Part shown: positions 497-41,354 of the stretch, in pieces
Numbering within the stretch: position 1 is the first letter of the stretch
Layout: each line of letters opens with the position of its first letter
Virus record (IMG/VR): IMGVR_UViG_3300021400_000529
Coordinates: 64,001 to 128,000 of that record
Length of the DNA stretch: 64,000 nucleotides
From: a virus
Taxonomy: Duplodnaviria > Caudoviricetes
Direction: 5' to 3' (one strand)
Program-made: the position numbers and the translations under genes
The notes under the pieces: model-generated
The model's database searches: none
Told to the model about the DNA's origin: nothing
What the model saw: only the letters and a program-made list of their open reading frames with translations

Positions 497-498
497 AG

Positions 499-1245: not shown

Positions 1246-1292
1246 TTAAACTATAATTTTTTTTTGTGTAAATACTTTTTTTTGGAGAATTT

Positions 1293-1952: not shown

Positions 1953-1974
1953 TGTAAGGAGAGATGTGTGTTAT

Positions 1975-2765: not shown

Positions 2766-3464
2766 ATGGGAAAGAATAGACATAATATAAACAATCCTTC
2801 AGTGTATGAATTGGAGCAAGGACTGCCGTTTCCTCCAAGTGCACATAGAATAATACCTACTGATGGTCATTCACCAGAATGGATGGATGCTTTTATTCAA
2901 CACATGGCTTTATGGGTAAATTTTGGTGCATTTGACCCAAATAATGGATTTTCTAAAGAAGAAAGGGAGTACATACTCAAAAACATGGAACCTTTGTCAG
3001 AATCATACCGGAAACAAAAGTTACTTTGGGGTGAGACTGATCCTGATATGTTTCGGGCACCGACTGTATTAGTAAGGATTGAAAAACAACATCACTTTAA
3101 TAAACAAAATTTAAAAAAAGGGGATAAATTGTCATCTAATCATGAATTAAGAAGTTTCAGTAGGGATGAAAGATTACCCTCTCACCTTATGGATGAGTAT
3201 ACTGGAAAATATGAGGGTGGTGCTACCATATACATCATAAAGGGAGACACAAAACAATATGATGTAAATTACCTTGAACCATTTCAAGGAGAAAAGGAAT
3301 CTTTTGTTGATTCAAACTCCTTAGTTGTTTCAGATACTAAAAAGTATCGGGGCAGTAATGAAAAAATGGTGGATAGAATATATGATGATTATGGTATTGA
3401 TTTGAGTAGTGCTCGTAACCTTCCTTCAAACATAAGAATAGTGGAGTTAACCCAAGAAAACTGA
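2766..3464 (+). CDS. MGKNR-leader protein 1; putative ADP-ribosyltransferase (R-S-E clade)
   Basis: Begins MGKNR. Motifs VLVR, RSFS and QGEKESFV fit the R / SxS / ExE signature. Confidence 0.6.
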   Translation: MGKNRHNINNPSVYELEQGLPFPPSAHRIIPTDGHSPEWMDAFIQHMALWVNFGAFDPNNGFSKEEREYILKNMEPLSESYRKQKLLWGETDPDMFRAPTVLVRIEKQHHFNKQNLKKGDKLSSNHELRSFSRDERLPSHLMDEYTGKYEGGATIYIIKGDTKQYDVNYLEPFQGEKESFVDSNSLVVSDTKKYRGSNEKMVDRIYDDYGIDLSSARNLPSNIRIVELTQEN

Positions 3465-3527
3465 ACCAATCAAACAATAAAAAAATAATGGGATAATGGA
3501 AAAAAGGGTGTAGATTAGGAGTATATT

Positions 3528-4055
3528 ATGGGTAAAAATAGGAAAAGAAATGGTGGACAAACAAGTCCTGGAGAAAACACAAGACCGTTTGATAATAGAA
3601 CAATAGATGAAATAAATAATGATGCTGTAAACAAAGCACTAGTTGAGGAAAACTTTGAAAACATAGAATTAGAAGCACTAGAATATGAAGCTAACCAAGG
3701 AAACTTCATTATAACGAACATGGATTCCAGTTCAGATGATGAAACTTACAAATTAGTAAATCCACGAAAAGACTATCAACAAGTAACAGTGGATAGGGGA
3801 AGCAACAGAATGTTACTAATGAATCGTGAAAGTGGAGATAGTGGTTTAGGAGATATACTTTCTAAAATAGATGAACATGTGGGTCAAAACACACGAAATA
3901 TAAACGTAGTCTTTGACCCTTACTTAGAACAGAATGGTGAAGGATTCATAATAAGAAATGGACCAGACCTTGTAATAAACAGTGCATACATGGATGGATC
4001 AAGCACATCCGAAATAAATGATTTACTTGATGATTACTTTAACAAGTATGGTTAG
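3528..4055 (+). CDS. MGKNR-leader protein 2; acidic, possibly a degenerate zincin paralogue
   Basis: Begins MGKNRKRNGG; AGGAG RBS. C-terminus resembles the pre-HExxH region of the paralogues but lacks HExxH. Confidence 0.6.
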   Translation: MGKNRKRNGGQTSPGENTRPFDNRTIDEINNDAVNKALVEENFENIELEALEYEANQGNFIITNMDSSSDDETYKLVNPRKDYQQVTVDRGSNRMLLMNRESGDSGLGDILSKIDEHVGQNTRNINVVFDPYLEQNGEGFIIRNGPDLVINSAYMDGSSTSEINDLLDDYFNKYG

Positions 4056-4094
4056 AGGATAATATGAGTAAACTATGAGTGGTGATGGTAATAT

Positions 4095-4988
4095 ATGGGT
4101 AAAAATAGGAAAAGTGGTGGTAGTGGTGGTGGAAACCAGCCTTCTGATGATGAATTAACATGGCAATCCGTAAAAGATGATCCTGAAAAAATTGCGGAGT
4201 TAACTGGTTGGAAATTCACCAAGTATGGTGATGGCAGTTATGATTTTTATGACAAAGAAAATGATTTTCATCTTAAATTAACTGCTCAAACATTAGAAGA
4301 ATTAAAAGATGCACCACTCATGCTTAACAGGATGGTAAAAATAGTTTATAACTTGCCAGATATGAATAAGCAGGTAACACCGAGTATGTATATTATATCT
4401 CCACCACCATATAGGAATGGAGTTTATGGTCAACATATGTCTATCCAGAATAAATATACTAAGGAAGTGCTTGGTCATAGTGTAGCAATTAACTCATCAG
4501 TATTCACAGAAGATGATGATGAAGTTACAAGGATTATGTTACATGAAACTAATCATGCACTTGATTATATTATGGGTGGACTTAAAGACAAAACCAGTAT
4601 TTCCCATTCACGTGAGTTTAAAAATGCTCTTAAATTAGATGGTCCATCCACAGATTATGGTGAATCAACAAAGTATAAAATAAATAAAAATGGTATTATC
4701 ACTGGAGAGTATTCAGAGAGGAGTTTGTATACTAAAGGTTCTAAGTGGTTGACTGAGAATTATGCTGAAGCTGGAAGTATTGTGCAACTTAAAAGATTAG
4801 GGTATGGTTCATCTGAGATTGAATTGCCTGGTGGTAAGTATGTGACGGTTGATGATTGGTGTGAATCTCATAGTCATGTTTATAATGTGGTTAATGATTT
4901 CCTTGATGATTATGATATGAATAATTATGGTAAACCTAATGTTAGTCATGAGATGATTGATAAGCGGTATTCTAATAATATTATTTAG
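4095..4988 (+). CDS. MGKNR-leader protein 3; lethal-factor-like zinc metallopeptidase
   Basis: MGKNRKSGGSGGG; HETNHALDY ... STDYG ... ENYAE. Confidence 0.7.
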   Translation: MGKNRKSGGSGGGNQPSDDELTWQSVKDDPEKIAELTGWKFTKYGDGSYDFYDKENDFHLKLTAQTLEELKDAPLMLNRMVKIVYNLPDMNKQVTPSMYIISPPPYRNGVYGQHMSIQNKYTKEVLGHSVAINSSVFTEDDDEVTRIMLHETNHALDYIMGGLKDKTSISHSREFKNALKLDGPSTDYGESTKYKINKNGIITGEYSERSLYTKGSKWLTENYAEAGSIVQLKRLGYGSSEIELPGGKYVTVDDWCESHSHVYNVVNDFLDDYDMNNYGKPNVSHEMIDKRYSNNII

Positions 4989-5305
4989 TTGTTTGTGGTT
5001 ATTTCATAGTTTTCGTCAAGTATTGTGCTGGTGTATACTGGTGTTTTACTGTCTTCTGTGTGTATGATTTCTGTCCATGATGGTGGTGTGTTTAAGTCGA
5101 GTATGTTTTCGATTTTTACTAGTTTTCCGTCTACTTTGTTTTCTGTGGTGAATACGTGGATTGTTTTTCCTTCTATTGTTTCCTTGTGGTATTCTCCATA
5201 TGTTTTGATGGGTTCTCCTAGTTGGTAATTTAGTACATGTTCTGGAATATCATTTTCTGGTGTTATTTTGTAATGTTTAATTAAATCTTTTATTGTTTTT
5301 ATCAT
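4985..5305 (-). CDS. Small antisense partner of 4095..4988 (putative immunity/inhibitor)
   Basis: Convergent, with a 4-nt 3' overlap. N-terminus MIKTIKDLIKHYKI..IPE shares a pattern with the three other antisense genes. Confidence 0.65.
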   Translation of the reverse strand: MIKTIKDLIKHYKITPENDIPEHVLNYQLGEPIKTYGEYHKETIEGKTIHVFTTENKVDGKLVKIENILDLNTPPSWTEIIHTEDSKTPVYTSTILDENYEITTNN

Positions 5306-5381
5306 TTCTTTCAGCCTCAAATTATTTTATTTTTTTATTTGGTTGGTATGTATGTTGTTTTAATTATTTAATTGTTAAGGA

Positions 5382-5394
5382 TTTTATTATAAAA
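5382..5394. promoter_or_regulatory. Palindrome TTTTATNATAAAA upstream of TerS
   Basis: Exact palindrome, recurring upstream of TerL, the tail completion gene and the endolysin. Confidence 0.45.
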
Positions 5395-5461
5395 TGGTAT
5401 GATGTTAAAGGTTGTGTGTTTTATAAATAGTGATAATGGAAAGTAATGGTGGTTTTTTGTT

Positions 5462-6121
5462 ATGTCAAATGAAGATAATGATGAATATAATTATGATGAA
5501 AGAATTAAGAATGAAACTGTGAAAGCTTTTGCTTATTTTAACACTTACTTGGAGTTAGGACCAAATCGTTCACTGAGTAAAGTACGAGAGAAACATAATA
5601 ATGATATTAGTTTACATCAGTTAAAGAATTATAGTAAAAAATATCATTGGGTTTCCAGAGCAAACAAGAAAGATGAAGATGACTTACAAGTACATAAGGA
5701 AAAGTTACGAGAGGAACAGGAACAGTACTTTGATAAGAGAATGGAACAACTTGACCAGTATCATCAAGCAACAGATGCTGTTCTTGGTCAATTGATGGTT
5801 GACCTCGGACTTATTCCAAATCCAAAAACAAAAGAGTTCGAACCCAATGACCGTGTGAACAGTACTACAGTTGCCAACAGTATTCAAAGTCTTACTAATG
5901 CTAATGCTGTAACTACTAAATTAGCTCTTCGTTTCCTTGGTTTACCAGAGCAAGTTAATGATACACAGGAAGTGGAAGTTAAAGCTGATGTTTCCACAGA
6001 TTATAATGAGGAGTTGAATAAACGGTATGCTGAGTTTAGTGAATCCATCATGGACAAAGCATTCATTAACAAACAGTTAGATTTGATAGATAAAATGATT
6101 GAAAACAAGAATAAGCAATAA
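5462..6121 (+). CDS. terS: Terminase small subunit (putative)
   Basis: N-terminal HTH-like AFAYFNTYLELGPNRSL...WVSRA followed by a helical region; lies upstream of portal and TerL. Confidence 0.65.
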   Translation: MSNEDNDEYNYDERIKNETVKAFAYFNTYLELGPNRSLSKVREKHNNDISLHQLKNYSKKYHWVSRANKKDEDDLQVHKEKLREEQEQYFDKRMEQLDQYHQATDAVLGQLMVDLGLIPNPKTKEFEPNDRVNSTTVANSIQSLTNANAVTTKLALRFLGLPEQVNDTQEVEVKADVSTDYNEELNKRYAEFSESIMDKAFINKQLDLIDKMIENKNKQ

Positions 6122-6136
6122 TTTTTAGGGTAGACA

Positions 6137-7126
6137 ATGGGTAAAAATAGGAAAAGTGCTGGTGGTGGTGCTGGAGAACCAATTCCCACTGAACCAGAAA
6201 TAGATTATTCAGAACAAAACAATGAAGTGTTCCAAGAAATATGTAAAGAAAAGGGTGTTGGACCTAAAGCTAAACAAAAATTAATAGAAATTTTAGAATT
6301 TTGTAATGACAACAACCTAGAATTAACTAAAGGTATAACAATATCATCTCCTAAAAAAGATAATCCTTGGTTTAAGTATGGTGGAACTGCACGGGCAACT
6401 ATTGTTGACAAGGAAACCGGTAAGAAAATCAGTATTTTTGATGACATGCTCAAAGGAAAAAATGCTGATGAATTATCCAAAGAATCATTGGATAACCTGT
6501 TAAAAGGTATACGGTATGAATATGAACATACAAACCCAGAATTCCATAATCTGTATTCTGACATTTTGTTAACAAACCATCGTTTAATACAGGATAGTGG
6601 TAAATGGGTTGCTAGTGGTGGATACGCATTCTTTGACCCGGTAGTACCGAATGCAATTACTATTAGAAGTAGTATGTTGGGTAAACAAGATTTCACTAAA
6701 CTGGGTAAAAATTCATATGGTCATCAATGGAATGAAAACTCTGTTAAAAAGATGGCCGCCACTATTGCTCATGAAAATGGTCATGCTTATGATTATCATG
6801 TGATTGGTAAGGGTACTGGTACTGACCAACCTTCTATTTTCACTGAACATGGACGAAATACTAATACTATTGGTCCATGCTCTTATGCTACAGATGTTCC
6901 TGGTGAAACAATTTCAACAGTCTGTGAGATGGTTATTAATAGAAGAGTTAGAAGTGATGCTAATTTGAGTGATGGCACGAGTATTGATGATGCGTACCAT
7001 GATAAGTATGGTAAATGGCCATCTTCTGTGCCTTCTGCTACGGAGAGTAAGAGAATGTATGAAATATGGTCCAATGATCCACAGTGGGCTCCTTTGATTG
7101 CTGAAGTTGAAGGGTTTATGTTATAA
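6137..7126 (+). CDS. MGKNR-leader protein 4; zinc metallopeptidase
   Basis: MGKNRKSAGGGAG; HENGHAYDY ... CSYA ... GETIS. Confidence 0.65.
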   Translation: MGKNRKSAGGGAGEPIPTEPEIDYSEQNNEVFQEICKEKGVGPKAKQKLIEILEFCNDNNLELTKGITISSPKKDNPWFKYGGTARATIVDKETGKKISIFDDMLKGKNADELSKESLDNLLKGIRYEYEHTNPEFHNLYSDILLTNHRLIQDSGKWVASGGYAFFDPVVPNAITIRSSMLGKQDFTKLGKNSYGHQWNENSVKKMAATIAHENGHAYDYHVIGKGTGTDQPSIFTEHGRNTNTIGPCSYATDVPGETISTVCEMVINRRVRSDANLSDGTSIDDAYHDKYGKWPSSVPSATESKRMYEIWSNDPQWAPLIAEVEGFML

Positions 7127-7205
7127 AAATATAGAAATAGTCCTTTTTTTAGGGAGTGTATAAAGCAGTTTCTAAATTATAGAGTGTGGTGGAGAGTGTT
7201 GTGTT

Positions 7206-7562
7206 TTAATATTTTACTCCCCATTGTTCTCCTTTGTAGTCTAAGTCGTAGGAGATTGGTTCCTCATATTTTTTGTTGGTTGGTTGTTGTGTGATGGTTA
7301 TTGTCATGGAACGGTAGTCTTCTGGTGTGTAATTGATTGTTATTTCATAGTCTTTGAATTTGTATGTGTATGTTTCTGTTTTTTCGTTTGTTGTATGTGT
7401 TGGTTGTGGTATTTGGTTTAGTGTTACTGTTTCCTCTTTGAATAGTGGCTTTGTTTGTGGGTTGTCTGAGAACAGTATTGTTTCTTTGAGTTTTTTGCTC
7501 ATGTTTTCTGTGTTTATGTTGGTTTTGTGTTTTTTTATGATGTTTTCTATGGTTATGTTCAT
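7206..7562 (-). CDS. Small antisense partner of 6137..7126 (putative immunity/inhibitor)
   Basis: Convergent; GAAGGTGA RBS on the minus strand; N-terminus MNITIENIIKKHK. Confidence 0.65.
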   Translation of the reverse strand: MNITIENIIKKHKTNINTENMSKKLKETILFSDNPQTKPLFKEETVTLNQIPQPTHTTNEKTETYTYKFKDYEITINYTPEDYRSMTITITQQPTNKKYEEPISYDLDYKGEQWGVKY

Positions 7563-7884
7563 TTTGGGTTCACCTTCATATTATTTTTTTTTTATTTGGT
7601 ATATTATTGTATTTGTTAACATTTATATTTTACTATTTCATTATAAAACCTTAATACTTTAACTGGTAAAAAAAGAATATCCATTCAAATATAACCAAAT
7701 TAACCAAATTAATAAGTAATTTAATGATAAAACCAACAAATAATCATCATATATTAAATTAAACAATTCAGAATAAGAATTTGTACTATTTAATATTAAT
7801 ATATATATTAATAGAAATAATTAAAAGGAAAAACCAAACCATCATAAAATAAAGAAAAAAAAGGAGTGGAAAACACAATCCAAA

Positions 7885-9504
7885 ATGGCAATACAACAAT
7901 TTATAGTAACAAACCATAACAACGAATGGGAAGTCATAGAAAAAAGCATACTGGACAGGTATGTGATTAAAGAAGATGACCTCAAAGTACAATCCAAATC
8001 AGTACATGACGAATTTGATTACAGTGAATTCAAAAGACCACAATTCAACCTCAAAAAATTATGTGAACTACTAGACAACAACACATACCACAGACGATGT
8101 TGCGAAGTAGTAGCCGAAGATGCAAGTGGATATGGATACAATATAGTTCCACTAAACCAGGTACATGATGATTCTAACGAAAATGAAGATCAAAAAGAAT
8201 TCATAGAAGAATTTCTTAAATCATTATATACTCCCATAAACACAGCACTATACAAATACTGCTATGATAAAAGAGCAGTAGGATGTGGGTGTATGGAAAT
8301 ACTACGTGAAAGTACAAGCAAAAGCAACATAGTAGACCTTAACCCAATACCTATATTCAACATGCTCGTACACAGAGATGGAGTAAGAGTACTTCAAAGA
8401 GTAGGAGCAAAACAACGATGGTTTGTATTATATGGTAAAAATGTAACTCCTGATGGCGTAAAATTTGATGTTCATTGTGATACTGGTAAACAGGTAGAAT
8501 ATGATACACTTGACCCAACAGAAAGAGCTAACGAACTCATATGGGGAGTAAACTATGCACCACATACTCCAACATATGGAAGTGCCAAAATAGTTCCAGC
8601 AATAAGAGCAATATTCGGAGACCTTAGCAGAGCAAGATACAACAATAGTTTCTTCCAAAACTATGGAATGCCATCATACGCAGTAGTGGTTACTGGTGAC
8701 TTTGATACGGGAGCAGACCCAGAGGACCCAGATTATGATGAAACAGAAACCTTGAAATATAAAATCAAGGAGAATATGGAAAATGCTGTAAAAAATCCTC
8801 ACAGTGCATTTGCCATGCTTATTCCTTCCTCAGAAGGTAATGTTCATGTTCAGTTCCACAAATTAAATGCTGGTGGAAGTAATGAGGCAAGTTTCAGATT
8901 ATACCGAGCAGATAACAGGGAAGAAGTAATGAGTGCTCATGGAGTACCACCTTACCGGATAGGACTTGCAATTAATGGAACACTTGGTGGAAGTACAAGT
9001 GTTGAAAGTGGAAACATTTACAACACCAGTATTATTCAACCAATCAAAAAGAAAAACGAGGACATTGTAAATGAAGTGTTGGTTAATGAGTATAATCAGA
9101 GGTTTGGGAAAGAAGAAACACAACTTTCATGGGTATTTAAAATAGAAGAAATAGATAAAAGAGATTACTTCCGTGATTTACAAAGTGCAAATATGTTATT
9201 TAACATGGCTGCCATGACTCCACGTCAAGTTTGTGAAAGTCTTGGAAAACCTATTGGTGCTATAGCAGACCCTGATAATCCATACCTTGATGAATATTTC
9301 ATACATGGAACTCCTTTATCATTAATGTTCAAGAACAATGAGATGGGTGAGTCACATAGTGTTCTTGATAAATTACATATTCAACAGCAAATGTGGATTA
9401 ATGAGTTACAGGCAAGATTGGGTGCTATGCAAATGGGTATTGATGCTGGTATGATTCCAACAAACGCACCGAATCCCACATTTGATGAATTAAACAAGGA
9501 CTAA
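7885..9504 (+). CDS. Portal protein
   Basis: FFQNYGMPSYAVVV and SAHGVPPYRIG...GG portal motifs; 539 aa; AGGAG upstream; position in the head module. Confidence 0.9.
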   Translation: MAIQQFIVTNHNNEWEVIEKSILDRYVIKEDDLKVQSKSVHDEFDYSEFKRPQFNLKKLCELLDNNTYHRRCCEVVAEDASGYGYNIVPLNQVHDDSNENEDQKEFIEEFLKSLYTPINTALYKYCYDKRAVGCGCMEILRESTSKSNIVDLNPIPIFNMLVHRDGVRVLQRVGAKQRWFVLYGKNVTPDGVKFDVHCDTGKQVEYDTLDPTERANELIWGVNYAPHTPTYGSAKIVPAIRAIFGDLSRARYNNSFFQNYGMPSYAVVVTGDFDTGADPEDPDYDETETLKYKIKENMENAVKNPHSAFAMLIPSSEGNVHVQFHKLNAGGSNEASFRLYRADNREEVMSAHGVPPYRIGLAINGTLGGSTSVESGNIYNTSIIQPIKKKNEDIVNEVLVNEYNQRFGKEETQLSWVFKIEEIDKRDYFRDLQSANMLFNMAAMTPRQVCESLGKPIGAIADPDNPYLDEYFIHGTPLSLMFKNNEMGESHSVLDKLHIQQQMWINELQARLGAMQMGIDAGMIPTNAPNPTFDELNKD

Positions 9505-9566
9505 AATTGTAACAAAGTGGTTACTGATTATTATTTTTTTTTAGAATTAAGTGAAAATCTGTTTTT

Positions 9567-10463
9567 ATGGTAAACTCTGATAAAATTTTAAATTATCTTA
9601 TCAAACAACATTATAACTCTTTACAACTCTTAGAGAGTAATTATGATACATCAGTTATAGGATTTCGTTCAGGATTATTTAAATTATTCCAAGATACACA
9701 AAGAGATATAAACAAATACTTTGGGAACAATCCAGTTAAATTAGAATCAGAATCAGATATAATTTCTGTAATTAATGAAATACAACCCATCACTGATTCA
9801 TTTCTTGGAAAGTATGAGAAATTATTGAATAAATGGTTAAACCTCTCAGTAACTGTAGGAAGGAAACATGGCTTAATAATGAACACCCATAACCTGATTG
9901 ATTCCGACATGTATGAAGTAAATATTATGGGAGGTGCTGATAATAAACAGGGTGGGTATGGGAACCTTAACCCTTTTTCTGATGAGGTTTCTTTTCAGAG
10001 ACAGTATCTTGAAAAAAAAATAATAAATAATCTCTCACGAATATTAGAGGAAAATAAACTTTATGAAAGTAATATTTCATCAGATAATCATAGAAAAGTA
10101 GTTATTAACCAACCAGATACCTTGTTTAACCATTTTTTCAACCAATTATCATCTACTTTTAATAATAACGTTTCTTCTTTATTGTTACATCGTTGGATTA
10201 ATTATGGATTATACTCCCAATATGAACAGTATAATGAGTATCACGTATGGTATTCTCGTGAGGATGAGCATGTTCGTCCTTCACACCAGAAGTTGCACGG
10301 GGAGGTAAGGAAAGTGGGAGAACTTTTCTCAAATGGTTGTTTATATCCTGGTGATGAAAATGGAATACCAGAAGAAGTGATGAACTGTCGATGTTACACA
10401 TTACCCTTTAATGTAAATGATTTACCATCAGGTTTAAGGAGTGAAATAAGAAAATATGGGTAA
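9567..10463 (+). CDS. MuF / SPP1 gp7-like minor head protein
   Basis: W...D..VRPSH..LHG...F.NG..YPGD.....EVMNCRC signature; directly after the portal. Confidence 0.85.
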   Translation: MVNSDKILNYLIKQHYNSLQLLESNYDTSVIGFRSGLFKLFQDTQRDINKYFGNNPVKLESESDIISVINEIQPITDSFLGKYEKLLNKWLNLSVTVGRKHGLIMNTHNLIDSDMYEVNIMGGADNKQGGYGNLNPFSDEVSFQRQYLEKKIINNLSRILEENKLYESNISSDNHRKVVINQPDTLFNHFFNQLSSTFNNNVSSLLLHRWINYGLYSQYEQYNEYHVWYSREDEHVRPSHQKLHGEVRKVGELFSNGCLYPGDENGIPEEVMNCRCYTLPFNVNDLPSGLRSEIRKYG

Positions 10464-11271
10464 AAATCGGAAAAGTAGTGATGGTAAAAGTGGAGGAATT
10501 GTTAATCCTAACATAACTGGTGAAGTTCAAAAGGAATTGGATGAACTGGTTAAAGAGGAGGGAATAACATATACAATCACAGAAAATGGTGTGACAGTTG
10601 AACGAAATGGTATTGTCTATGAAGTAGGTAATGTGTTTCTTGAAAATAAAAGATTCAGTATTAATGGAAACACACCAGAAACACTTAAAAAAGTATTCAC
10701 ATATTATGATGAGTTCCCAAAAGAAATTCAAACAGTTAATAAAATTAATTTAATCTCTGACCCTACCAAAAAACCAGAAGTATTCGGATATTATAAACCA
10801 GACAACCCTAATGAAATAACATTATTACCATCAATACTTTCAGATAAGTATTATGCGAGTGATGGGAATTATAACAGTTTCAGGTATGTGATGTATCATG
10901 AGTCTGCACATAGTCTTGATTATTCTATGACCAAGTCTTGGGATCCTTTCACGGAAAGTCGATGGTGGATGATGGCTAATGCTGGGAAAGAAGCAGTATC
11001 TTATTATGGAAAGTATGCTTATATGGTTGGTGGTAATCCTGACCGTGAAAACTTTGCGGAGATGGTTGCTATACAAGCAACATATGAAGTTACTGGTCGG
11101 TGTGATAATATTCAGAAAGCAACGGAGTATTCATCGGATGAGGTTGTTTATAAAACTTACGAGGATTGGCATAAATCTAGTCCTGATTATGGAAAATATG
11201 ATCAATCATATGAATGGGTTGATGAAGTGTACCAGTTGGTAAAAGAGAAATATGAGAAAGGATATTATTAA
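10456..11271 (+). CDS. MGKNR-leader protein 5; lethal-factor-like zinc metallopeptidase
   Basis: MGKNRKSSDG; HESAHSLDY ... VSYYG ... RENFAE. Overlaps the MuF 3' end by 8 nt. Confidence 0.75.
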   Translation: MGKNRKSSDGKSGGIVNPNITGEVQKELDELVKEEGITYTITENGVTVERNGIVYEVGNVFLENKRFSINGNTPETLKKVFTYYDEFPKEIQTVNKINLISDPTKKPEVFGYYKPDNPNEITLLPSILSDKYYASDGNYNSFRYVMYHESAHSLDYSMTKSWDPFTESRWWMMANAGKEAVSYYGKYAYMVGGNPDRENFAEMVAIQATYEVTGRCDNIQKATEYSSDEVVYKTYEDWHKSSPDYGKYDQSYEWVDEVYQLVKEKYEKGYY

Positions 11272-11543
11272 CTCATAATTATGTGTTTACCATTTTTATC
11301 ATATGCATTGTAATGTCGGTCGGATGTTATGGATAATTCTTGTGTGGTTTCATTGTATTCTACTGTTATTTGTAAATCTATGTCTTCGATTTTTCCGGAA
11401 AATGTGTGGATTGTTTGTTTGTTTTCAGTTCTTTTTTCATACTTGCATGTGTGTTCATCAATGTATAGTTCCATTTCACCTAATTTGGGGGGGATGGTAA
11501 TGTTTATGTTTTTGTATTTTAGTAAATTTTTAAGCGTTATCAT
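11268..11543 (-). CDS. Small antisense partner of 10456..11271 (putative immunity/inhibitor)
   Basis: Convergent, 4-nt overlap; MITLKNLLKYKNINITIPPKLGE. Confidence 0.65.
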   Translation of the reverse strand: MITLKNLLKYKNINITIPPKLGEMELYIDEHTCKYEKRTENKQTIHTFSGKIEDIDLQITVEYNETTQELSITSDRHYNAYDKNGKHIIMS

Positions 11544-11682
11544 GGTTTTTGTTTTGTTTTAATTATTATTTATGTTTTATTATTATGCCTTTGTACTGTT
11601 ATGTTCATACTTTAATTTCGTCTTTTGTTACTCATATTGTGCTTGTTGGATTATATTCTTTCTATTTTATATATTTTAACTA

Positions 11683-11695
11683 TTTTATGATAAAA
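11683..11695. promoter_or_regulatory. Palindrome TTTTATGATAAAA downstream of a TATA-like box, upstream of TerL
   Basis: TTTATATA lies about 17 nt upstream. TerL ATG is 8 nt downstream with no SD, suggesting a near-leaderless transcript. Confidence 0.45.
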
Positions 11696-11702
11696 CCAAA
11701 TT

Positions 11703-13211
11703 ATGACTACTGATACTGATATTCCCATTAATTATTATAACCCTGCTTCATTGAATATTGCGATGTGGGGTCAATTAATTACGGAAGGTAAATGGGAGCC
11801 AAGACATTTTGACAAGATAATCATAGAATTCCTTTACTATGCTTTACAGGGTAAGATTTCTAAGATAATGATAAGCGTACCTCCAAGGCATGGAAAAAGT
11901 ACTTTGATAAGTAAAATATTTTGTTCATATTTTCTTGCAAACTTTCCTAATGAACAAGTAATTCTTTCATCATATTCTATGGGTTTGGCAAGTGAATTTG
12001 GTGGTGAAGTAAAAGATATATTAAACTTTTACTCTGATCAAACCTTACTCAAAGCTGGATTATCCTCTGACAGTAAAGCAAAAAACAAGTTCCATATGAG
12101 TCCACCTTTCAAGGGACAAATGTTAAGTGTGGGTGCAGCAGGTTCTATTTTAGGATTTGGTGCTGGATTATTTATCATTGACGACCCTATTAAAAACATT
12201 GCTGAAGCAGAAAGTCCAGTTTTACAAGAGAAACTTAACTCATGGTTTCATACCACAGCAAAAACAAGGCTTCAGAAAAGAAGCAATGGTCTTCCACCAA
12301 TAATGTTAGTTATTGCACAAAGATTACATGTGAATGATTTACAAGGTATTATTAAACGGAATGAACAATGGATACCAGCAAAAGAAGCACTAGAAGCATT
12401 ACGTGAAGGAAAAGGATTTAATGAAAATGTATGGATTGACTTAACACTACCAGCAATATGTGAAAACCCAGAGGAAGACCTTCTTGGAAGAGAAGAAGGA
12501 GAAGTATTATGGCCAGAACAACAAAACTATGAAAACTTAATGGCTGCTCGTAGAAGTATGGGAAGTTACTTGTTTAATGCAGTTTACCAAGGTAATCCTT
12601 CTATAAGACAAGGAAACATATTCAGAAGAGAATGGTTTTATGATGAAGGAGAAGTCACACCTAACTGTATTATTGATAAATCCGAACTTCCTGAAGATTT
12701 ACCAACACAAAGATACTGGGATTTTGCGGCCAACAGTAAAGTCAAAAAAGGAACTCCTCATGGTGACGAAACCAGTGGTGTATTAACAGGTTATGATGGA
12801 ACAACATTATATGTAATAGATTTGGTTAACAACAATTTCACTCCAAAACAAGTAAATGAAACATTCATCAGGACAGCATTGAAAGATGGTAAACAAACAA
12901 AAGTATTTATCGAGGAAGAACCTGGAAGTGGTAGCCGAATTCTTATTAACATGTACAGAAACAATCCAAAACTCAAGGGTTGGAATATAAGACCTGATAA
13001 AGTTAAGGGTCCTAAGAATATTCGAAGTTTTTCACTTGAAAATCTGGCAGAAAGTGGTAATATCAAGTTTGTAAGGAACAAATGGAATAATAAGATGATA
13101 GAACAGTTAATCAGTTTCACTGGTGAGGATGGTGAACGTGATGATATTGTGGACAGTTTAACTGGTAGTGCTCGTATGTGGTTGCATAAGAAAACTAAAA
13201 TAATATTATAA
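11703..13211 (+). CDS. terL: Terminase large subunit
   Basis: Walker A PPRHGKS, Walker B FIIDDP, YQGNP, nuclease YWDFA and RDDIVDS. Confidence 0.95.
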   Translation: MTTDTDIPINYYNPASLNIAMWGQLITEGKWEPRHFDKIIIEFLYYALQGKISKIMISVPPRHGKSTLISKIFCSYFLANFPNEQVILSSYSMGLASEFGGEVKDILNFYSDQTLLKAGLSSDSKAKNKFHMSPPFKGQMLSVGAAGSILGFGAGLFIIDDPIKNIAEAESPVLQEKLNSWFHTTAKTRLQKRSNGLPPIMLVIAQRLHVNDLQGIIKRNEQWIPAKEALEALREGKGFNENVWIDLTLPAICENPEEDLLGREEGEVLWPEQQNYENLMAARRSMGSYLFNAVYQGNPSIRQGNIFRREWFYDEGEVTPNCIIDKSELPEDLPTQRYWDFAANSKVKKGTPHGDETSGVLTGYDGTTLYVIDLVNNNFTPKQVNETFIRTALKDGKQTKVFIEEEPGSGSRILINMYRNNPKLKGWNIRPDKVKGPKNIRSFSLENLAESGNIKFVRNKWNNKMIEQLISFTGEDGERDDIVDSLTGSARMWLHKKTKIIL

Positions 13212-13229
13212 TATAATAAGGAATGAATT

Positions 13230-14141
13230 ATGGGAAAGAATAGAAAAAGTGGTGGTGGTTCTGGTGGTGGTAACAGTGCTCCGAGAGAAACACCAGAACA
13301 GTTCCAGCAGAGAGTTGACTTAGCTGAAAGTCTGATGACTGTTGAAATGCATATGATGGAAAAAGGAGCATTATCCAAGCCACAAATCAAAAGGTTGCTT
13401 AATACAGTAATGGATGAAAATACTGATTATGTTGGTTTGGTTCGGAAGAATGGTGCTTTTTTCCTACGGTTTGAGGAAAAGTTAGTGTCTCCTGATGGTA
13501 CTGAGCATACACATACACTTAACTTCAATACAGCTTCTTATAAGAATATGTATAAGAAGGATGCTATCATATCTATTGAGGAAATGATTTCTGCTTATAG
13601 GGATATTCCTGAGTTTAATAGGAATATGGCTTATAATTATTATTTTGGACAAACTACAGATGGTGATTGCAGTAAGCTTGGAGGATTATTTAAACCATCA
13701 GACAAATCAGTAAATATTGGTGTAGGATGTTTTAGTAACAAGAAAAGAAGTAGTAAAGATTGGATAAGAAATGTTTTAAACCATGAAAATACTCATGCTT
13801 CTGATTATGTAAATGTGGGTGGTTATATGACTCATTTAAGTCGAGATTCACCAGTTTTCAAAAGAATTATGAGTACAAACAAGGCTAGTGCATACAGTGA
13901 AAGTTATGGTGGTTGGAAATATTATTCAGAAAGTATAGCTGAAGCAGTAGCAGTAACAAGGATGTACAGGAAATATGGTAATGATCATGCTTTGATTTGT
14001 GATCCGGAAAAAAGTTATGTTGTAGGTAATGAAATTGATTATAAGACGTGGGCTAAACGGTATCCTGACTTGGCTAAGTTTGCTAACGATTTCATTGATT
14101 GTGATAGTGAATCGAAATTAAGGGGATTGTTTGAAGTTTAA
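13230..14141 (+). CDS. MGKNR-leader protein 6; lethal-factor-like zinc metallopeptidase
   Basis: MGKNRKSGGGSGGG; HENTHASDY ... ASAYS ... SESIAE. Confidence 0.7.
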   Translation: MGKNRKSGGGSGGGNSAPRETPEQFQQRVDLAESLMTVEMHMMEKGALSKPQIKRLLNTVMDENTDYVGLVRKNGAFFLRFEEKLVSPDGTEHTHTLNFNTASYKNMYKKDAIISIEEMISAYRDIPEFNRNMAYNYYFGQTTDGDCSKLGGLFKPSDKSVNIGVGCFSNKKRSSKDWIRNVLNHENTHASDYVNVGGYMTHLSRDSPVFKRIMSTNKASAYSESYGGWKYYSESIAEAVAVTRMYRKYGNDHALICDPEKSYVVGNEIDYKTWAKRYPDLAKFANDFIDCDSESKLRGLFEV

Positions 14142-14160
14142 TTTAAGAATGTTATTGGTT

Positions 14161-14436
14161 TTACATTAAATCTTCAGTGCCATCTTCATGTACAACATAT
14201 CCGGCGGTTGGTAATCCTTCAGATTCTTTTTCAAATGTGATTGTTTTTTTATTTTCATTGATTGTGATTGTGTCTGTGATTGGTCCTGTTGTTTTTGTGA
14301 AGATGTGTTGGTTACCTTCTTGTTTGTATGTGTACTGGTCTGCTGGTGGCATTATTAATCCTATTGTATGCTCTCTGAGTGTTTCTGGTATGTTCGTTTG
14401 AATATTATATTCTTTTATTAAATCATTAACTTTCAT
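14161..14436 (-). CDS. Small antisense partner of 13230..14141 (putative immunity/inhibitor)
   Basis: Convergent; AGGTGA RBS 5 nt before ATG 14436; MKVNDLIKEYNIQTNIPETLRE. Confidence 0.65.
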   Translation of the reverse strand: MKVNDLIKEYNIQTNIPETLREHTIGLIMPPADQYTYKQEGNQHIFTKTTGPITDTITINENKKTITFEKESEGLPTAGYVVHEDGTEDLM

Positions 14437-14552
14437 TTTAATCACCTGTTGTATTATGTATGTAATTGTATTTTAAGTAATATTTATATTTTATCATAAC
14501 CTCTAATAAGGAGTATACTGAGTATTTAGGAAGGAGTGAGAAATAATTTTTT

Positions 14553-15053
14553 ATGGGAAAAAATAGAAGTAATGGTCTTGGTGGAGGAAATGCTGGTAAT
14601 CCAGATGATTCTCTTCCAGATTATCGTTGGATAGATGATATTGGAGAAAATGGTGGTTACATTTCCAGACCAAAATGGGATGATGTTATGGTTGATGATG
14701 AACCATACGTTAGAGGTATTGTGGGTGTTTTATCCGATAATCCTGTTGGAATGTCTGTTGATGATATAATTGAATATTATGATGGTGGTCATGGTATTGT
14801 AGAAATTGGTTTTGATTCTGGAACAAATTATTCCTTTGAAGAACGTGGTTACATTAATGAAAGAGATTGGGATAATTTGAAAGCAGATTTACCAACTTAT
14901 CTCGATAACTTGGAAAGTGATGATGCAATTTATGTAAACAGGGATGGAAACTATGTTCTTAATCCTTACATTCAAGGATTACCTTCCAGTGAACAGTTAA
15001 TGGATGATGCAATGGATTATTATTCGGATTATGAAACATATATGGGATTATAA
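14553..15053 (+). CDS. MGKNR-leader protein 7; very acidic, possible winged-helix
   Basis: MGKNRSNGLGGG; D/E-rich; helix-helix-wing pattern (LSDNPVGMSVDDII ... IYVNRDGNYVL). Confidence 0.6.
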   Translation: MGKNRSNGLGGGNAGNPDDSLPDYRWIDDIGENGGYISRPKWDDVMVDDEPYVRGIVGVLSDNPVGMSVDDIIEYYDGGHGIVEIGFDSGTNYSFEERGYINERDWDNLKADLPTYLDNLESDDAIYVNRDGNYVLNPYIQGLPSSEQLMDDAMDYYSDYETYMGL

Positions 15054-15059
15054 TAAGTT

Positions 15060-15479
15060 ATGGGAAAAAACAGAAGTAGTCAAAACAAACAAGGTACAGT
15101 TCCATCCTCTTTAAATTCTGGGATGATAACGGAGGAATTTTCCAGATTATCCGATGTTCAAGAAGAATATAGTTTTATAGAGGGACAATTGGAAGGAGAA
15201 CCTGATGATTTTTATGAAACAAGATATTCATTATCTCAATCAATCATTGCATCAATTAATGAAGTTAAACGAACGATGTTAAAGTTAAGGGAGAATCCAT
15301 CTGACCAAGGATTGTATGATGAGTATAAGGAAAGGGAAAAGATAACTTTAGACTTTATTAATGCTTATTTTAGTTTTTTAAGGAGTTCACCATATTATGG
15401 TAATGCTGTGGATTGGTCCGAGCCTTATACTTCAATAGCATTTTCACCAGAAGTAGGGCATGGTGAACCTGTAATATAA
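15060..15479 (+). CDS. MGKNR-leader protein 8; acidic helical protein
   Basis: MGKNRSSQNKQG; tightly packed in the array. Confidence 0.65.
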   Translation: MGKNRSSQNKQGTVPSSLNSGMITEEFSRLSDVQEEYSFIEGQLEGEPDDFYETRYSLSQSIIASINEVKRTMLKLRENPSDQGLYDEYKEREKITLDFINAYFSFLRSSPYYGNAVDWSEPYTSIAFSPEVGHGEPVI

Positions 15480-15494
15480 TAATGGAGTAGTATA

Positions 15495-16007
15495 ATGGGG
15501 AAGAATAGGAGTCGTAATAGGCAACCTTCTGGTAGTAATGGTGAATCACCAACAATTGGTGATATGGAAATACCTAATGGTGTTGACACGATAACTGTGC
15601 AACCAGAGGAAAATCCTGGAACAAGAACAACACTTGAAAGAAATGAAGAAAAAATAAGGAAGGAACTAAACCAGTTATATAGTGATGTTTATGATGCTGA
15701 AGAAGAAAGAAGTTTCTTACATAGGGATATGTTAGACCGTCAACGAGAAGTTCAAAACATACAAGATAAGTTAGATGCTGTGAAAGCAAGTCCTAACGCA
15801 ACGGAGATAAGGATTACTGACCTTCAAAGACAATTAGATAAAGCTAATCGTGAATATGGTCAAGCTACGACTTTGTATGAGAAACAGAGAGATAAAGTTC
15901 AGGAGATGAATAATCGTATTTTCGAGTTAGAAACGGGTTTTAGTGGTACCGCTCCTTATGTTAATTGGGCAAAAGGAGAAATTGGAAATGATGATGATGG
16001 ATTATAA
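15495..16007 (+). CDS. MGKNR-leader protein 9; coiled-coil
   Basis: MGKNRSRNRQPSG; long heptad region; GGAG RBS. Confidence 0.65.
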   Translation: MGKNRSRNRQPSGSNGESPTIGDMEIPNGVDTITVQPEENPGTRTTLERNEEKIRKELNQLYSDVYDAEEERSFLHRDMLDRQREVQNIQDKLDAVKASPNATEIRITDLQRQLDKANREYGQATTLYEKQRDKVQEMNNRIFELETGFSGTAPYVNWAKGEIGNDDDGL

Positions 16008-16022
16008 AAATGGTAAATAATT

Positions 16023-16469
16023 ATGGGTAAAAATAGAGCAAGTACTTTACCAACTATGAGTGAAGATACTGCTGGAACAATATTTAATAAGGAAATAAGT
16101 AATCCTAATCCCGAAACAACTATAAAAATTGGGGAAAGAACTGTGGAATTACCTCGTGGTTATACAAAAGAAATGTTGGATAATAATTTAATGCGAACTA
16201 TGTTAAAGGATGTTCAACGGAACAGAATTACTGGTGAAGTAGGTTACTTATCTGGAAATCCTAAAGCAGATTTATATGAACTGTATGAATCTCCATATTA
16301 TCCATGGTCTGAAACATTTCCTAATTATGGTGATTTTGAAAGATATTATGAACAAAATGTTGAACCAAAAATGTTGGAACAAAGACAAGCTATGATGGAT
16401 TATCTTAAAGAACATGATGATAGGGTTATGGTTACAGCATATGGTTGGTTGAATGGTGATTATGAATAA
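16023..16469 (+). CDS. MGKNR-leader protein 10; unknown function
   Basis: MGKNRASTLP; last member before the prohead protease. Confidence 0.65.
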   Translation: MGKNRASTLPTMSEDTAGTIFNKEISNPNPETTIKIGERTVELPRGYTKEMLDNNLMRTMLKDVQRNRITGEVGYLSGNPKADLYELYESPYYPWSETFPNYGDFERYYEQNVEPKMLEQRQAMMDYLKEHDDRVMVTAYGWLNGDYE

Positions 16470-16530
16470 GATCTAATAATTTGAAATTGGGATTTATATT
16501 CACAGCTCAACGTGGAGATAACTAATTTTT

Positions 16531-18198
16531 ATGGATAAAATTATAATTACATGTCCTGTTTTAATTCCATTTACTCCTGATTGTGAATATTCGTATGGTG
16601 AGGAAGTTCTACCTCCTGAAAAAATTGAACAATTGGCAAATTCATTTAATGATTATAAGATTATTGATTTGCAACATGAGTTTACGAAACGGTTAATTAA
16701 TAAGTTAAATCCTATTCCTAGAGGTAAGCTTCTTAAAAGTTACATTGTACAAGACACTTTGCACCTCAAGGGTTTAGATGGTTTAATAAGAGAATATCCG
16801 AAGGGTACATGGATTATTTCAGTGGAAATAACTGATCCGGAAGCAAAACAATTATACAAAGATGGTGTACTAACAGGGTTAAGTGTAACTGTTAAAGAAC
16901 GTGAGCATGCTGATGCGATTATAGACTTTTTAGAGAATAACAGTGTTCCTTATCTGCCTGAACAAGTGGTGGAAGCTGAGAAAGCATTTTCAAAGGTTCC
17001 GAAGAGAATACTTATGAAAGATGTGGTGAACCCAGTTGCATTCACAGTTTCACTTGTAAGAGCACCTTGTGTGTATGATGCTAAGTTTTGTAAGAATTCT
17101 TGTTTGATAGTAAATAAGAATAAATTAAGGGAGAAGAAAATTTTGAATCTCAAAGAAAAAATTAAAAAAGAACTCAATAGTTTCATTGATGGTTTGGATG
17201 TTGAGGATGAAAGTGTTAAAGAGGACATTGAATCATCTGAACCTGTTGAAGTGTTAAAAGAAGATGTGGAAGATGCCTCAGAGGCTGTTAAAACGGAAGA
17301 AAATAGTAATGTAAGCGAACAATCCGAATCCATTAAAGAAGATGGTGATGGTGATGGTGACGGTAAGGGTGACGGCGATGGTAACGGAGGAACAAGTACT
17401 CCCGCAACACCATCCGGTGACGGTAATGGTAATGGAGGAACTACCCCTACCTCAACTGATAGTAATGGTGGGTCAACACCTACTTCAACTGGTGGAGATG
17501 GTGATAAAACATCTGACACAGATTCCACAACATCAACATCAACTGATGGTGGTGAATCAGATGATGATTCTGATGAAGATAACAGTACATCTAAAGGTAA
17601 AGTTAAGGAAGCTAAAAAAGAAGACCTTGAAACTGAATCTGAAAAATCAGAATCCAAAAAATGTGGTGGTACAAAAACCATTTATGGACGTAAAGTAAAA
17701 GTTTCTGAAGCCAAAAAAGAAACAGAAGAAGATGCTGTGGCAACAGAATCGGATAAGGTATTGTATCTTGCACAGGAAGATGTGGAAAGTTTAATCAGCA
17801 CCACACTAAGAAGATATGCTGATGAAGTTGAAAAAATGGTTTTTGATGGTATTCAAGAAGCATTAGATGATTACCTGTTTGCTAATGATACTTCTTATAA
17901 GGAAGATTTAAAATCAGAACCGGAAGAAGAGGAACCAGAAGAACCTGAAGAAGAGGAATCTCAAAAAGAATATGCAACAGCTGAAATGGTTCAGTCAATG
18001 TTCGATGAACAATTCTCATCATTCAAATCATCATTAATGGATAATATTAAACAGGCTCAAAAAGAATCAATAAAATCATACAGCAAAGCCATTACTCCAA
18101 GTGATGATGGATTATCTGATGAATCCGCAAAGGAATCATTTACTCCTCGTGTTCAAAGAGATTTTAATGGTTGTAGAATTAGAAGAGGAAGAAACTAA
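16531..18198 (+). CDS. Prohead protease (XkdF-like) fused to acidic scaffolding region
   Basis: IDLQH, PKGTW, GVLTGLSV and VSLVRAP motifs; long acidic/low-complexity C-terminus; directly before the capsid gene. Confidence 0.75.
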   Translation: MDKIIITCPVLIPFTPDCEYSYGEEVLPPEKIEQLANSFNDYKIIDLQHEFTKRLINKLNPIPRGKLLKSYIVQDTLHLKGLDGLIREYPKGTWIISVEITDPEAKQLYKDGVLTGLSVTVKEREHADAIIDFLENNSVPYLPEQVVEAEKAFSKVPKRILMKDVVNPVAFTVSLVRAPCVYDAKFCKNSCLIVNKNKLREKKILNLKEKIKKELNSFIDGLDVEDESVKEDIESSEPVEVLKEDVEDASEAVKTEENSNVSEQSESIKEDGDGDGDGKGDGDGNGGTSTPATPSGDGNGNGGTTPTSTDSNGGSTPTSTGGDGDKTSDTDSTTSTSTDGGESDDDSDEDNSTSKGKVKEAKKEDLETESEKSESKKCGGTKTIYGRKVKVSEAKKETEEDAVATESDKVLYLAQEDVESLISTTLRRYADEVEKMVFDGIQEALDDYLFANDTSYKEDLKSEPEEEEPEEPEEEESQKEYATAEMVQSMFDEQFSSFKSSLMDNIKQAQKESIKSYSKAITPSDDGLSDESAKESFTPRVQRDFNGCRIRRGRN

Positions 18199-18477
18199 GT
18201 TTATATTAAAGTAGAACAGGTTGCTTCATTTTTTTATTTAACTTGTTAATAACCACTAATGTGGATGATGACACATCAAAAAATTTATCTCTTTCATGAA
18301 AAATATGGAATAATTTAGTTAAAAAAAAAGGATATGGTTGAAATAAGAATATTAAGCGACTAAATTAATTTTTTTCAGATTAAGAGTAAACTATTGTTGT
18401 TTTTTTTTGTATTAATAAAATTTAAAAAAAGTGCATTATTTAACCAAAAAAATTATATATGGAGAAAATTTTTTATT

Positions 18478-19665
18478 ATGAGTGAATTACAATCAATAAT
18501 GGATAAAGTAGAAGAATCATACAAGTCAATGGTAATCGATAACTTTGGAGCTTCAGTACTTCAACCAGGTTACTTTGATAAATATGTTGAATATGCTACA
18601 AGAGATACATCAATTCTCGTTGATGCTAGACAAATTATCATGGATCAACAAGTAGTGAACATTGACAGAACAGGTTTCACTGGCCGTATCCTTGAACCTG
18701 GTAGAGAAACAAGAGTACCAAAAAGAGCAAAACCAGAAGTAAGACAGGAAAGATTAATTGCTAATGAACTTGTTGCTGATGTTGCTATTACTGACCAAGC
18801 TCTTCGTAGAAACATTGAAAGAGGTGGATATGAAGATACACTTATTAACATGATGGCTGCTCAAGCTGGTGCTGACTGGGAATCATACGCTGTGCTTGGT
18901 AACAGAGGATTAGCAGAAGAAAATCCCGAAATTGACCCATTATTAACAGAACAAAACGGTTGGATTGCTAAATGTAGAAACCACATTTACAGTGATGATA
19001 CTGAAATTGCTGGTGCAAAACAAGGTAAAGAAGTACAGACTATGCTTCGTTCCATGTTAAAACATTACCCACAGGAATACAGGGGAGACAGAAGAAGTCT
19101 TGTATACTACCTTGATTCTGATACATTTGATGATTATGTAGAAGAAGTTGGAGAAAGACCAACAATTGCTGGGGACGATGCTATAAGTAATTACATTGCA
19201 AGACCATATAAAGGTATTGAAATCAGAGAAGCTCCAGTATTAAACGAAGCTAGAGATATTGAAGGAGTTGGAACTACCGCAATGCTTGTAAACCCAGACA
19301 ACCTTGTATATGGTATCTTTGAAAATGTAACTATTGAAAGAGATAGAAATGTAAGAAGAAGATTAACTGACTTTGTATTAACAATGGAAGTTGACCAAGC
19401 ATTTGAAAACCCATTCCTTTGTGTATGTGCTCACCCTGATGTTGCTGAAGAAGACAGTGTTGCTGAAGCTGAATCTGATTACAGTAACTTCCATCATAAT
19501 GGTAAGGGTACTTATGAATACATCAACAAAAAAGGTTACTTACCAGATACTGGAAATGGACCTCACAACACAAGATATGATGCAACACATGATATTGACC
19601 CAAGTTCATACACTACAAGTGGTACCGTAACTCCGGGCAATGGTAATGGTCAAGACGGAGGATAA
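18478..19665 (+). CDS. Major capsid protein (HK97 fold)
   Basis: Start MSELQ after GGAGA. VLQPGYF, ALRRNIE, YKGIEI..AP and NPDNLVYG fit an HK97-type capsid; position after the protease. Confidence 0.85.
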   Translation: MSELQSIMDKVEESYKSMVIDNFGASVLQPGYFDKYVEYATRDTSILVDARQIIMDQQVVNIDRTGFTGRILEPGRETRVPKRAKPEVRQERLIANELVADVAITDQALRRNIERGGYEDTLINMMAAQAGADWESYAVLGNRGLAEENPEIDPLLTEQNGWIAKCRNHIYSDDTEIAGAKQGKEVQTMLRSMLKHYPQEYRGDRRSLVYYLDSDTFDDYVEEVGERPTIAGDDAISNYIARPYKGIEIREAPVLNEARDIEGVGTTAMLVNPDNLVYGIFENVTIERDRNVRRRLTDFVLTMEVDQAFENPFLCVCAHPDVAEEDSVAEAESDYSNFHHNGKGTYEYINKKGYLPDTGNGPHNTRYDATHDIDPSSYTTSGTVTPGNGNGQDGG

Positions 19666-41314: not shown

Positions 41315-41354
41315 TTTAATAGGTTTAATAAGATAATGGAGTGTGGTTAATCAA

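Follow-up and report, generated by a model that had tools for sequence, protein, structure and literature searches.

The DNA analysed here (the window) is a stretch of 64,000 nucleotides, bases 64,001-128,000 of one 137,316-bp virus contig (IMG/VR record IMGVR_UViG_3300021400_000529; Duplodnaviria, Caudoviricetes; hereafter G000), and coordinates are those of the window unless marked genome, L001 or another contig. Near its start lie ten plus-strand open reading frames (ORFs), at 2766, 3528, 4095, 6137, 10456, 13230, 14553, 15060, 15495 and 16023, whose products all begin with the pentapeptide MGKNR, hereafter the tag. The original prediction that these ten ORFs share this N-terminus is confirmed, and the set is larger than it had noted. 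Genome-wide we count 21 MGKNR starts (20 ORFs of at least 40 amino acids (aa) and one 27-aa stub) plus one MGKSR and one MGKNW, a total of 23 tagged proteins that make up about 11% of G000 ORFs and have mostly unrelated bodies. All 23 tags are on the plus strand within a 32-kb block (genome 48,350-80,469), and the 13 upstream of the window (11 further MGKNR, the MGKSR and the MGKNW) occupy genome 48.3-63.4 kb. A six-frame search of the window and of the whole 137,316-bp genome found no GKNR outside the tagged starts, and a degenerate DNA pattern for the tag gave 21 forward and 0 reverse matches in the virus. A motif equally common in unrelated host or early genes would have counted against a dedicated signal; the tag is absent from the other genes of the virus, and the same DNA pattern matched only twice in 5.8 Mb of two Methanobrevibacter metagenome-assembled genomes (MAGs), the likely host type.

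Several related viruses served for comparison: G001 (a 141,779-bp IMG/VR genome with a portal 76% identical to that of G000), L019 (a 9.9-kb contig, portal 88% identical), L018 (a 6-kb contig close to G000), L029 and L031. G000 and G001 are the complete genomes of this set, and L019, L031, L018 and L029 are contigs of 3-10 kb. The part of the tagged block that lies in the window, with the two genes that follow it, reads as follows.

2766..3464, plus strand: MGKNR-tagged protein like R-S-E ADP-ribosyltransferases, 232 aa, one of six paralogues in the genome (alignment, AF2, Foldseek)
3528..4055, plus strand: MGKNR-tagged protein of no known family, 175 aa; the L018 orthologue starts MGKSR
4095..4988, plus strand: MGKNR-tagged putative zincin (HExxHxxD...E), 297 aa (alignment, M13 profile match, AF2)
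4985..5320, minus strand: untagged convergent partner ORF of the 4095 zincin, 111 aa (partner-family hidden Markov model (HMM), E=3e-31)
5462..6121, plus strand: putative small terminase, untagged (position and conservation; 72% identical in G001)
6137..7126, plus strand: MGKNR-tagged putative zincin, 329 aa (zincin alignment)
7206..7562, minus strand: untagged convergent partner ORF, 118 aa (partner HMM, E=2e-22)
7885..9504, plus strand: portal protein, untagged (PF04860, E=2.5e-14)
9567..10463, plus strand: short stand-alone MuF, 298 aa, untagged (PF04233)
10456..11271, plus strand: MGKNR-tagged putative zincin directly after MuF, 271 aa (zincin alignment)
11268..11543, minus strand: untagged convergent partner ORF, 91 aa (partner HMM, E=2.5e-25)
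11703..13211, plus strand: large terminase, untagged (Terminase_6N/6C; 58% identical to TerL of Methanobacterium virus Drs3)
13230..14141, plus strand: MGKNR-tagged putative zincin, 303 aa (zincin alignment)
14161..14445, minus strand: untagged convergent partner ORF, 94 aa (partner HMM, E=4e-27)
14553..15053, plus strand: MGKNR-tagged acidic protein of no known family, 166 aa, body net charge -25
15060..15479, plus strand: MGKNR-tagged protein of no known family, 139 aa
15495..16007, plus strand: MGKNR-tagged coiled-coil protein, 170 aa, with orthologues in all four tag lineages
16023..16469, plus strand: MGKNR-tagged protein, 148 aa, the final tagged gene ahead of the protease (a MASKG-tagged protein of G001 is 40% identical; MGNNT-tagged relatives in L019)
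16531..18198, plus strand: XkdF-type prohead protease fused to an acidic scaffold-like region, untagged, a candidate reader of the tag (PF14550, E=1.6e-14)
18475..19665, plus strand: putative major capsid protein, untagged, a candidate reader of the tag (77% identical in G001; position of the XkdG-type capsid gene of Drs3)

This downstream half of the block, with its ten tagged genes, is interleaved with terS, portal, MuF and terL. Of the head-gene labels given earlier, those of the portal, MuF, TerL and the XkdF-type protease are borne out by Pfam; the ORF called terS (5462..6121) had no match in a Pfam scan, and its homologues are flanked by tagged genes in L018, L029 and L031. The Pfam scan likewise gave no match for the major capsid protein (18475..19665). 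In G000, G001 and L031 alike, the block stops precisely at the prohead protease, and the tail module after 16.5 kb contains no tagged gene. Untagged genes, namely terS, portal, terL and methylases, stand within the same operon-like runs as the tagged ones.

Synonymous codon variation in the tag had been taken as a sign of conservation at the peptide level; the variants that were named are present, and they follow genome-wide usage. AAA accounts for 80% of its codons against 71% in the genome and AAT for 80% against 71%, arginine is spelled by AGA, AGG, CGT and CGG, which takes in AGR as well as CGN codons, and the 15-nucleotide sequence is fixed at 11 positions. The DNA upstream of the tagged ORFs is not conserved apart from Shine-Dalgarno-like motifs, which precede 18 of 22 tagged genes. 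Since the tag codons behave neutrally and the upstream DNA is unconserved, selection acts on the tag peptide and not on the DNA. A DNA repeat as the source of the shared start is ruled out by the unconserved upstream regions and the varying codons. Behind MGKNR runs a flexible linker of 10-25 residues rich in Gly, Ser, Asn and Pro: residues 6-20 of tagged proteins are 66% G/S/N/P/T/Q compared with 30% in untagged proteins (p=4e-12). AF2 leaves tag and linker (the first 17-27 residues) disordered in both folded families described below, and the tagged bodies are net acidic. The proposal of a portable N-terminal module placed on interchangeable bodies is supported at the peptide level. We rejected an N-myristoylation-type signal, given the Lys after Gly and the archaeal host. 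Two of the upstream ORFs, the 27-aa MGKNR ORF (L001:16166-16249) and the 53-aa MGKNW ORF (L001:14923-15084), resemble decayed or truncated cargo cassettes and are consistent with rapid cargo turnover.

The body types recognised from the letters alone (ART-like, zincin, acidic and coiled-coil, where ART stands for ADP-ribosyltransferase) were each checked and upheld. A zincin family accounts for seven tagged proteins in G000, of which four lie in the window; in its alignment H150, E151, H154 and E221 are invariant and D157 is nearly so, which gives HExxH, a downstream Glu and an Asp three residues past the motif. The family profile matches the catalytic core of M13 peptidases (E about 1e-5). 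The AF2 model of the 4095 zincin (pTM 0.78, residues 1-17 disordered) has weak fold matches (E>=2e-3), all of them zinc peptidases, including lethal factor and Pro-Pro endopeptidase (PPEP). By its motifs the family carries the gluzincin, or phage-type metallopeptidase (MPTase), signature, and HExxHxxD is the mark of the phage-type MPTases of polyvalent proteins (PMC5512222). Bodies within the family are 16-38% identical, and the tag residues in front of them are invariant.

The second family comprises six tagged ART-like proteins, one of them in the window (2766). Its alignment contains R, [S/A]FS and [E/Q]xE motifs, of which R, FS and E are invariant in 10 sequences. A Pfam scan and a search of PDB sequences with the family profile gave no match. 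The AF2 model of the 2766 protein (pTM 0.76, residues 1-27 disordered) was used for Foldseek, and the top matches are all ART toxins (VahC, SpvB, C2-I, CDTa and C3; probability about 1.0, TM about 0.4). The catalytic Arg, the Ser motif, the [Q/E]xE motif and the modelled fold are those of R-S-E ADP-ribosyltransferases, and we regard the proteins as predicted enzymes of this class. The remaining tagged proteins are the coiled-coil protein, the acidic protein and orphans; Pfam and PHROG scans of the tagged proteins returned nothing above threshold.

Every tagged zincin is adjoined by a member of one novel family of small proteins (91-133 aa). This partner family has eight members in G000, none of them tagged, and further members in G001, L018, L019 and L031. 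Most partner ORFs are convergent, on the minus strand of a genome that is otherwise about 90% plus-strand. The pairs lie at 4095-5320, 6137-7562, 10456-11543 and 13230-14445 in the window and at L001:6950-8127, 13042-14187 and 16320-17976 upstream. This layout resembles that of toxin-immunity pairs and makes the partners candidate immunity proteins.

Related viruses carry other tags in the same place. G001 has no MGKNR start; it has 24 ORFs in one block that begin with MASK(G/Y/N/D/Q), MTSKG or MSSKG. L019 uses MGNN(T/P/S), with MGHNS and MGTRS as variants, and L018 mixes MGKNR and MGKSR. In L029 and L031 all seven cargo genes between portal and protease bear (Mxxxx[N/F]Y)LSLIS[R/K]G or MSLISK, and the codons of this LSLIS tag differ at almost every position. 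The change of tag can be followed on single genes: the coiled-coil orthologue upstream of the protease starts MGKNR, MGNNS, MASKG or MSLISK according to lineage, and the orthologues of the last tagged G000 protein start MGKNR, MGNNT and MASKG. Gene order and content differ between close relatives. That the cargo should vary while the head genes stay conserved had been offered as a check, and it agrees with the comparison of the two complete relatives, G000 and G001, in which tagged bodies are 24-40% identical or undetectable and head genes are 70-77% identical. Among reciprocal best hits untagged proteins have a median identity of 57%, whereas only 4 of 22 tagged proteins have such a hit at all, with 32-40% identity. 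By these comparisons, the tagged cargo evolves much faster than the head genes.

Three further observations concern N-terminal leaders in these viruses. Eight of the MASK-tagged G001 proteins (L003:709-1729, 12722-13207 and further loci upstream) have an extended leader in common, MASKG-(G)n-ASYxDTGIDDYPTYLN[S/T]E, although their bodies are unrelated; it may be a second signal layer, or a cleavage site ending in Glu. An ORF of L018 (L018:261-530) reads ...DIRGKSRTSNGSNN, with Arg in place of the tag Met and an upstream GTG start, and is possibly a tagged gene with a mutated ATG. Finally, in a more distant 53-kb virus (L033:10001-20475) at least nine neighbouring genes, a zincin homologue among them, share an N-terminal leader of 20-30 residues that ends in KC, in the form MVKYxxILxxIxxYxEKC or MDYPVFSIKEIAEVK...KC; this leader is also found on many metagenomic zincin homologues.

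The zincins are numerous enough to ask what the tag identity follows. A word-indexed protein search with the zincin profile found 2 proteins, and an exhaustive profile search found 222 homologues. About 52 of the 110 stand-alone homologues among the best 150 of these 222 begin with one of the four tags. We built a maximum-likelihood tree from 59 tagged zincin bodies after removal of the tag and 15 linker residues. On this tree the tag class changes at least 21 times, compared with a minimum possible of 3 and a shuffled mean of 28, and many strongly supported sister pairs have unlike tags. Within each genome examined, a single tag is common to all zincin subfamilies. On the evidence of this tree, tag identity follows the genome and not the gene: either the tag is replaced in parallel across the paralogues of a lineage, or bodies that move adopt the local tag. 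One tag per genome together with mixed sister pairs on the tree therefore points to a genome-encoded reader of the tag, and we hold it highly probable that the tag is a peptide address read by a virus-encoded partner.

Longer zincin homologues link the tag to the head. All 40 homologues above 400 aa are without a short tag, and 29 of the 40 have Phage_Mu_F N-terminal to the zincin. In these MuF fusions a linker of 30-90 residues leads up to the zincin module, which opens with a TPE(D/K)IAEYFG motif; the same motif (DDPEKIAELTGW) opens the G000 zincin bodies after tag and linker. Aligned in this way, tag plus linker occupies the position of MuF plus linker, and MuF is an established carrier domain associated with the head. 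In SPP1 the MuF protein is bound to the portal within the capsid; in MuF toxins the C-terminus is often a metallopeptidase or ART domain, with immunity genes next in line (PMC5576092). Where distant relatives lack tags, they possess a single giant MuF fusion in their place. The G000 tagged proteins contain no MuF domain, and MuF is there a separate gene whose stop shares 8 nt (10456-10463) with the ATG GGT AAA start of the tagged zincin that follows, with the zincin frame one base ahead. The overlap looks like the site of a MuF-zincin fission, and it may also allow a frameshift-made fusion. Neither cargo family had a significant profile match to the 1,141-aa MuF fusion of a distant relative (L004); by eye, the C-terminal stretch of that fusion looks ART-like.

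Our best reading of these data, to which we give an even chance, is that MGKNR is a capsid-loading tag. In this model MGKNR and its flexible linker would form a short address peptide that marks a large, fast-changing accessory set, namely zincins, ART-like enzymes, the conserved coiled-coil protein and orphans. A component encoded by the virus would read the tag, and this reader would be part of the head-assembly machinery, whether the scaffold-protease, the capsid shell or the portal. The tagged proteins would be recruited into the procapsid, would leave with the DNA at the next infection and would then act on host targets. The tag would thereby replace the MuF domain of about 260 residues that carries the same zincin module in other viruses, and the untagged partners would remain behind in the producing cell, where they would keep the zincins in check. 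A wider version of the model, which is possible although we would not bet on it, is that a clade of large Methanobacteriales viruses uses a genome-specific code of 4-6 residues and a co-evolving head reader to load two dozen effectors for injection, the tag alleles matching cargo to its own capsid.

Several observations weigh against capsid loading. The original prediction placed the tagged genes among head genes, which is correct for the ten in the window and not for the 13 of 23 in the upstream half, which sit among DNA methylase, ParB-like and QueC genes. MuF as a universal reader was rejected: it is absent from G001 (E<=1), which has 24 tagged genes, and from the portal-protease interval of L019 and L031. 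The portal C-terminal tail was rejected as well, its two forms tracking phylogeny and not tag class. A shared protease cleavage motif after the tag or linker was not found among the tagged proteins. The LSLIS motif can sit 7-8 residues from the start, so the signal does not always include a free N-terminus. Last, the G000 bodies are net acidic, whereas the T4 internal proteins are basic. As to where a reader could be sought, the protease-scaffold protein has a conserved protease domain and C-terminal helix and a hypervariable middle. This middle is the only strongly divergent part of the head machinery, and it is a lead on the reader, not a result. Co-folding of a 30-residue tagged N-terminus with the protease-scaffold and the capsid protein gave a score of 0.00 in a run with no controls, which is evidence neither way.

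A different destination for the same kind of signal is conceivable. The tag could be an address to a site other than the capsid interior, such as the tail or baseplate, a replication or assembly compartment, the cell envelope, or a hub such as the tagged coiled-coil protein. Genome-specific switching of the tag implies a reader encoded by the virus but does not say where that reader is, and half of the tagged genes adjoin DNA-modification genes. The bodies, however, are enzymes of the kinds that are fused to MuF and not adhesins, the tail module is free of tagged genes, the block ends at protease and capsid genes in three genomes, and no hydrophobic or known archaeal export signal is present in the tagged N-termini. 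We consider such an address unlikely, though not negligible.

The tag could also be a processing or stability signal, by which a viral protease (XkdF or the zincins) or a host protease activates, times or destroys the enzymes, with no role in packaging. In most tag variants small residues do come directly after a basic one (KNR|K, ASK|G, SR|G), the zincins of polyvalent proteins have been proposed to be processing enzymes (PMC5512222), and the presence of partner genes next to the zincins suggests that their activity needs control. A degron read by the host should nevertheless be the same in sister viruses, a basic residue is often missing near MGNN-class tags, and the equivalence with the MuF position is left unexplained. 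We judge this account improbable; cleavage and targeting coexist in T4, so it overlaps with capsid loading and does not exclude it.

A third possibility places the function of the conserved start in the mRNA, as an optimum for initiation or as the binding site of a viral regulator of translation. A-rich codons 2-4 favour initiation in bacteria, most nucleotides of the tag are fixed as described above, and the tagged genes are all co-oriented in one block. Against this, arginine codons in the tag are of AGR as well as CGN type and wobble bases fit neutral usage, the LSLIS tag persists although its codons differ at almost every position, untagged neighbours (terS, portal, terL and methylases) manage without a tag, and four unrelated peptides in sister lineages suit a protein reader better than an RNA reader. 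These points leave the mRNA-level explanation with little to recommend it. That the tag is functionless, left over from shared ancestry or from recombination in which bodies are exchanged downstream of a constant 5' joint, is hardly credible: many tagged proteins do come from two paralogous families, and differences in gene order and content between close relatives show frequent rearrangement, but the five residues are invariant on same-family bodies that have diverged to 16-38% identity, the tag is common to unrelated bodies, 15 nt with variable wobble positions are too short for homologous recombination, and parallel replacement of the tag over all families of a lineage needs selection.

A capsid-loading tag has precedents in bacteriophages. 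In T4 a short N-terminal capsid-targeting sequence (CTS) marks the internal proteins IPI-III and Alt, a varied set of anti-defence cargo proteins (PMC3012670; Mullaney and Black, 1996, as cited in PMC9024508). In both T4 and G000 a short N-terminal peptide is the sole conserved feature of a diverse, fast-evolving accessory set, the T4 set includes a packaged ADP-ribosyltransferase, and both viruses have a prohead protease. The systems differ in that inspection of the 23 leaders revealed no sequence similarity to the CTS and no gp21-type (L/I-x-E) cleavage site, and in that the G000 tag consists of 5 residues on 23 proteins of an archaeal virus whose protease is XkdF-type, not gp21-type. Moreover, the G000-type tag switches wholesale between close relatives, and its part in packaging is a proposal. 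In phage P1 an N-terminal signal of DarB is sufficient for head entry, and the cargo of the Dar anti-restriction system protects incoming DNA (PMC9024508); the P1 signal, found on a single protein, is about 30 residues long and needs other Dar proteins, in contrast to 5 residues on 23 proteins in G000.

Two other known systems have the same kinds of effectors in another arrangement. The MuF polymorphic toxins (Jamet et al., 2017, PMC5576092) are alike in their metallopeptidase and ART classes, their location by portal and terminase and their adjacent small candidate immunity genes, but the G000 proteins stand alone, there are many effectors per genome instead of one, and MuF is absent from the tagged relative G001. 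The polyvalent proteins of phages and conjugative elements join two to fifteen disparate effector domains in one polypeptide, and their proposed time of action is the very start of invasion (Iyer et al., 2017, PMC5512222). One G000 block holds the same repertoire (zincin MPTase with HExxHxxD, ART, DNA methylases and ParB-like proteins), although here the enzymes are separate genes, each tagged protein has at most one recognisable domain, and the methylases and ParB are untagged.

The claim of novelty stands in part. In the literature we found no mention of MGKNR in this sense and no paper that brings capsid targeting together with archaeal viruses; T4 and P1 already exemplify the general idea. 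What we found to be new is the archaeal virus, the very short tag, its presence on about 11% of genes, four tag alleles that appear to be replaced in parallel, and the homology bridge to MuF fusions. If true, the wider model would give archaeal viruses their first described system of cargo loading, in which a pentapeptide has naturally taken the place of the MuF carrier domain, and it would do so for archaeal tailed viruses, whose host takeover and particle contents are almost wholly uncharted. A loading signal would yield about two dozen candidate injected effectors against methanogens of the gut or rumen type, including peptidases and ADP-ribosyltransferases with candidate inhibitors, and a five-residue handle for bringing foreign proteins into such capsids. 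Replacement of the whole tag set between sister viruses would be a rare natural case of an address code and its reader changing together, and with four tag alleles the reader can be sought by covariation and by swaps.

The host is well supported as archaeal, of the Methanobacteriales, if short of proven, because the viral TerL shares 58% identity with the TerL of Methanobacterium virus Drs3 and the more distant relatives are proviruses in Methanobrevibacter MAGs. Three paralogous genes of the tail region (41343-44959), one with a weak transglutaminase-core match (E=0.004), could encode pseudomurein-cleaving enzymes, which would fit such a host. Upstream, a DNA-modification block (window 1-2736 and L001:3535-12989) includes QueC (E=7e-42), two ParB-N proteins that flank an unassigned protein of 248 aa, six methylases (five N6/N4 and one C5) and a Dam-like gene, all untagged. 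Its content suggests that the viral DNA carries 7-deazaguanine and multiple methyl marks. Finally, both ends of the contig carry a ATAATAAT... run and about 70 further identical bases, as expected if G000 is circular or terminally redundant; the IMG/VR record is listed as linear.

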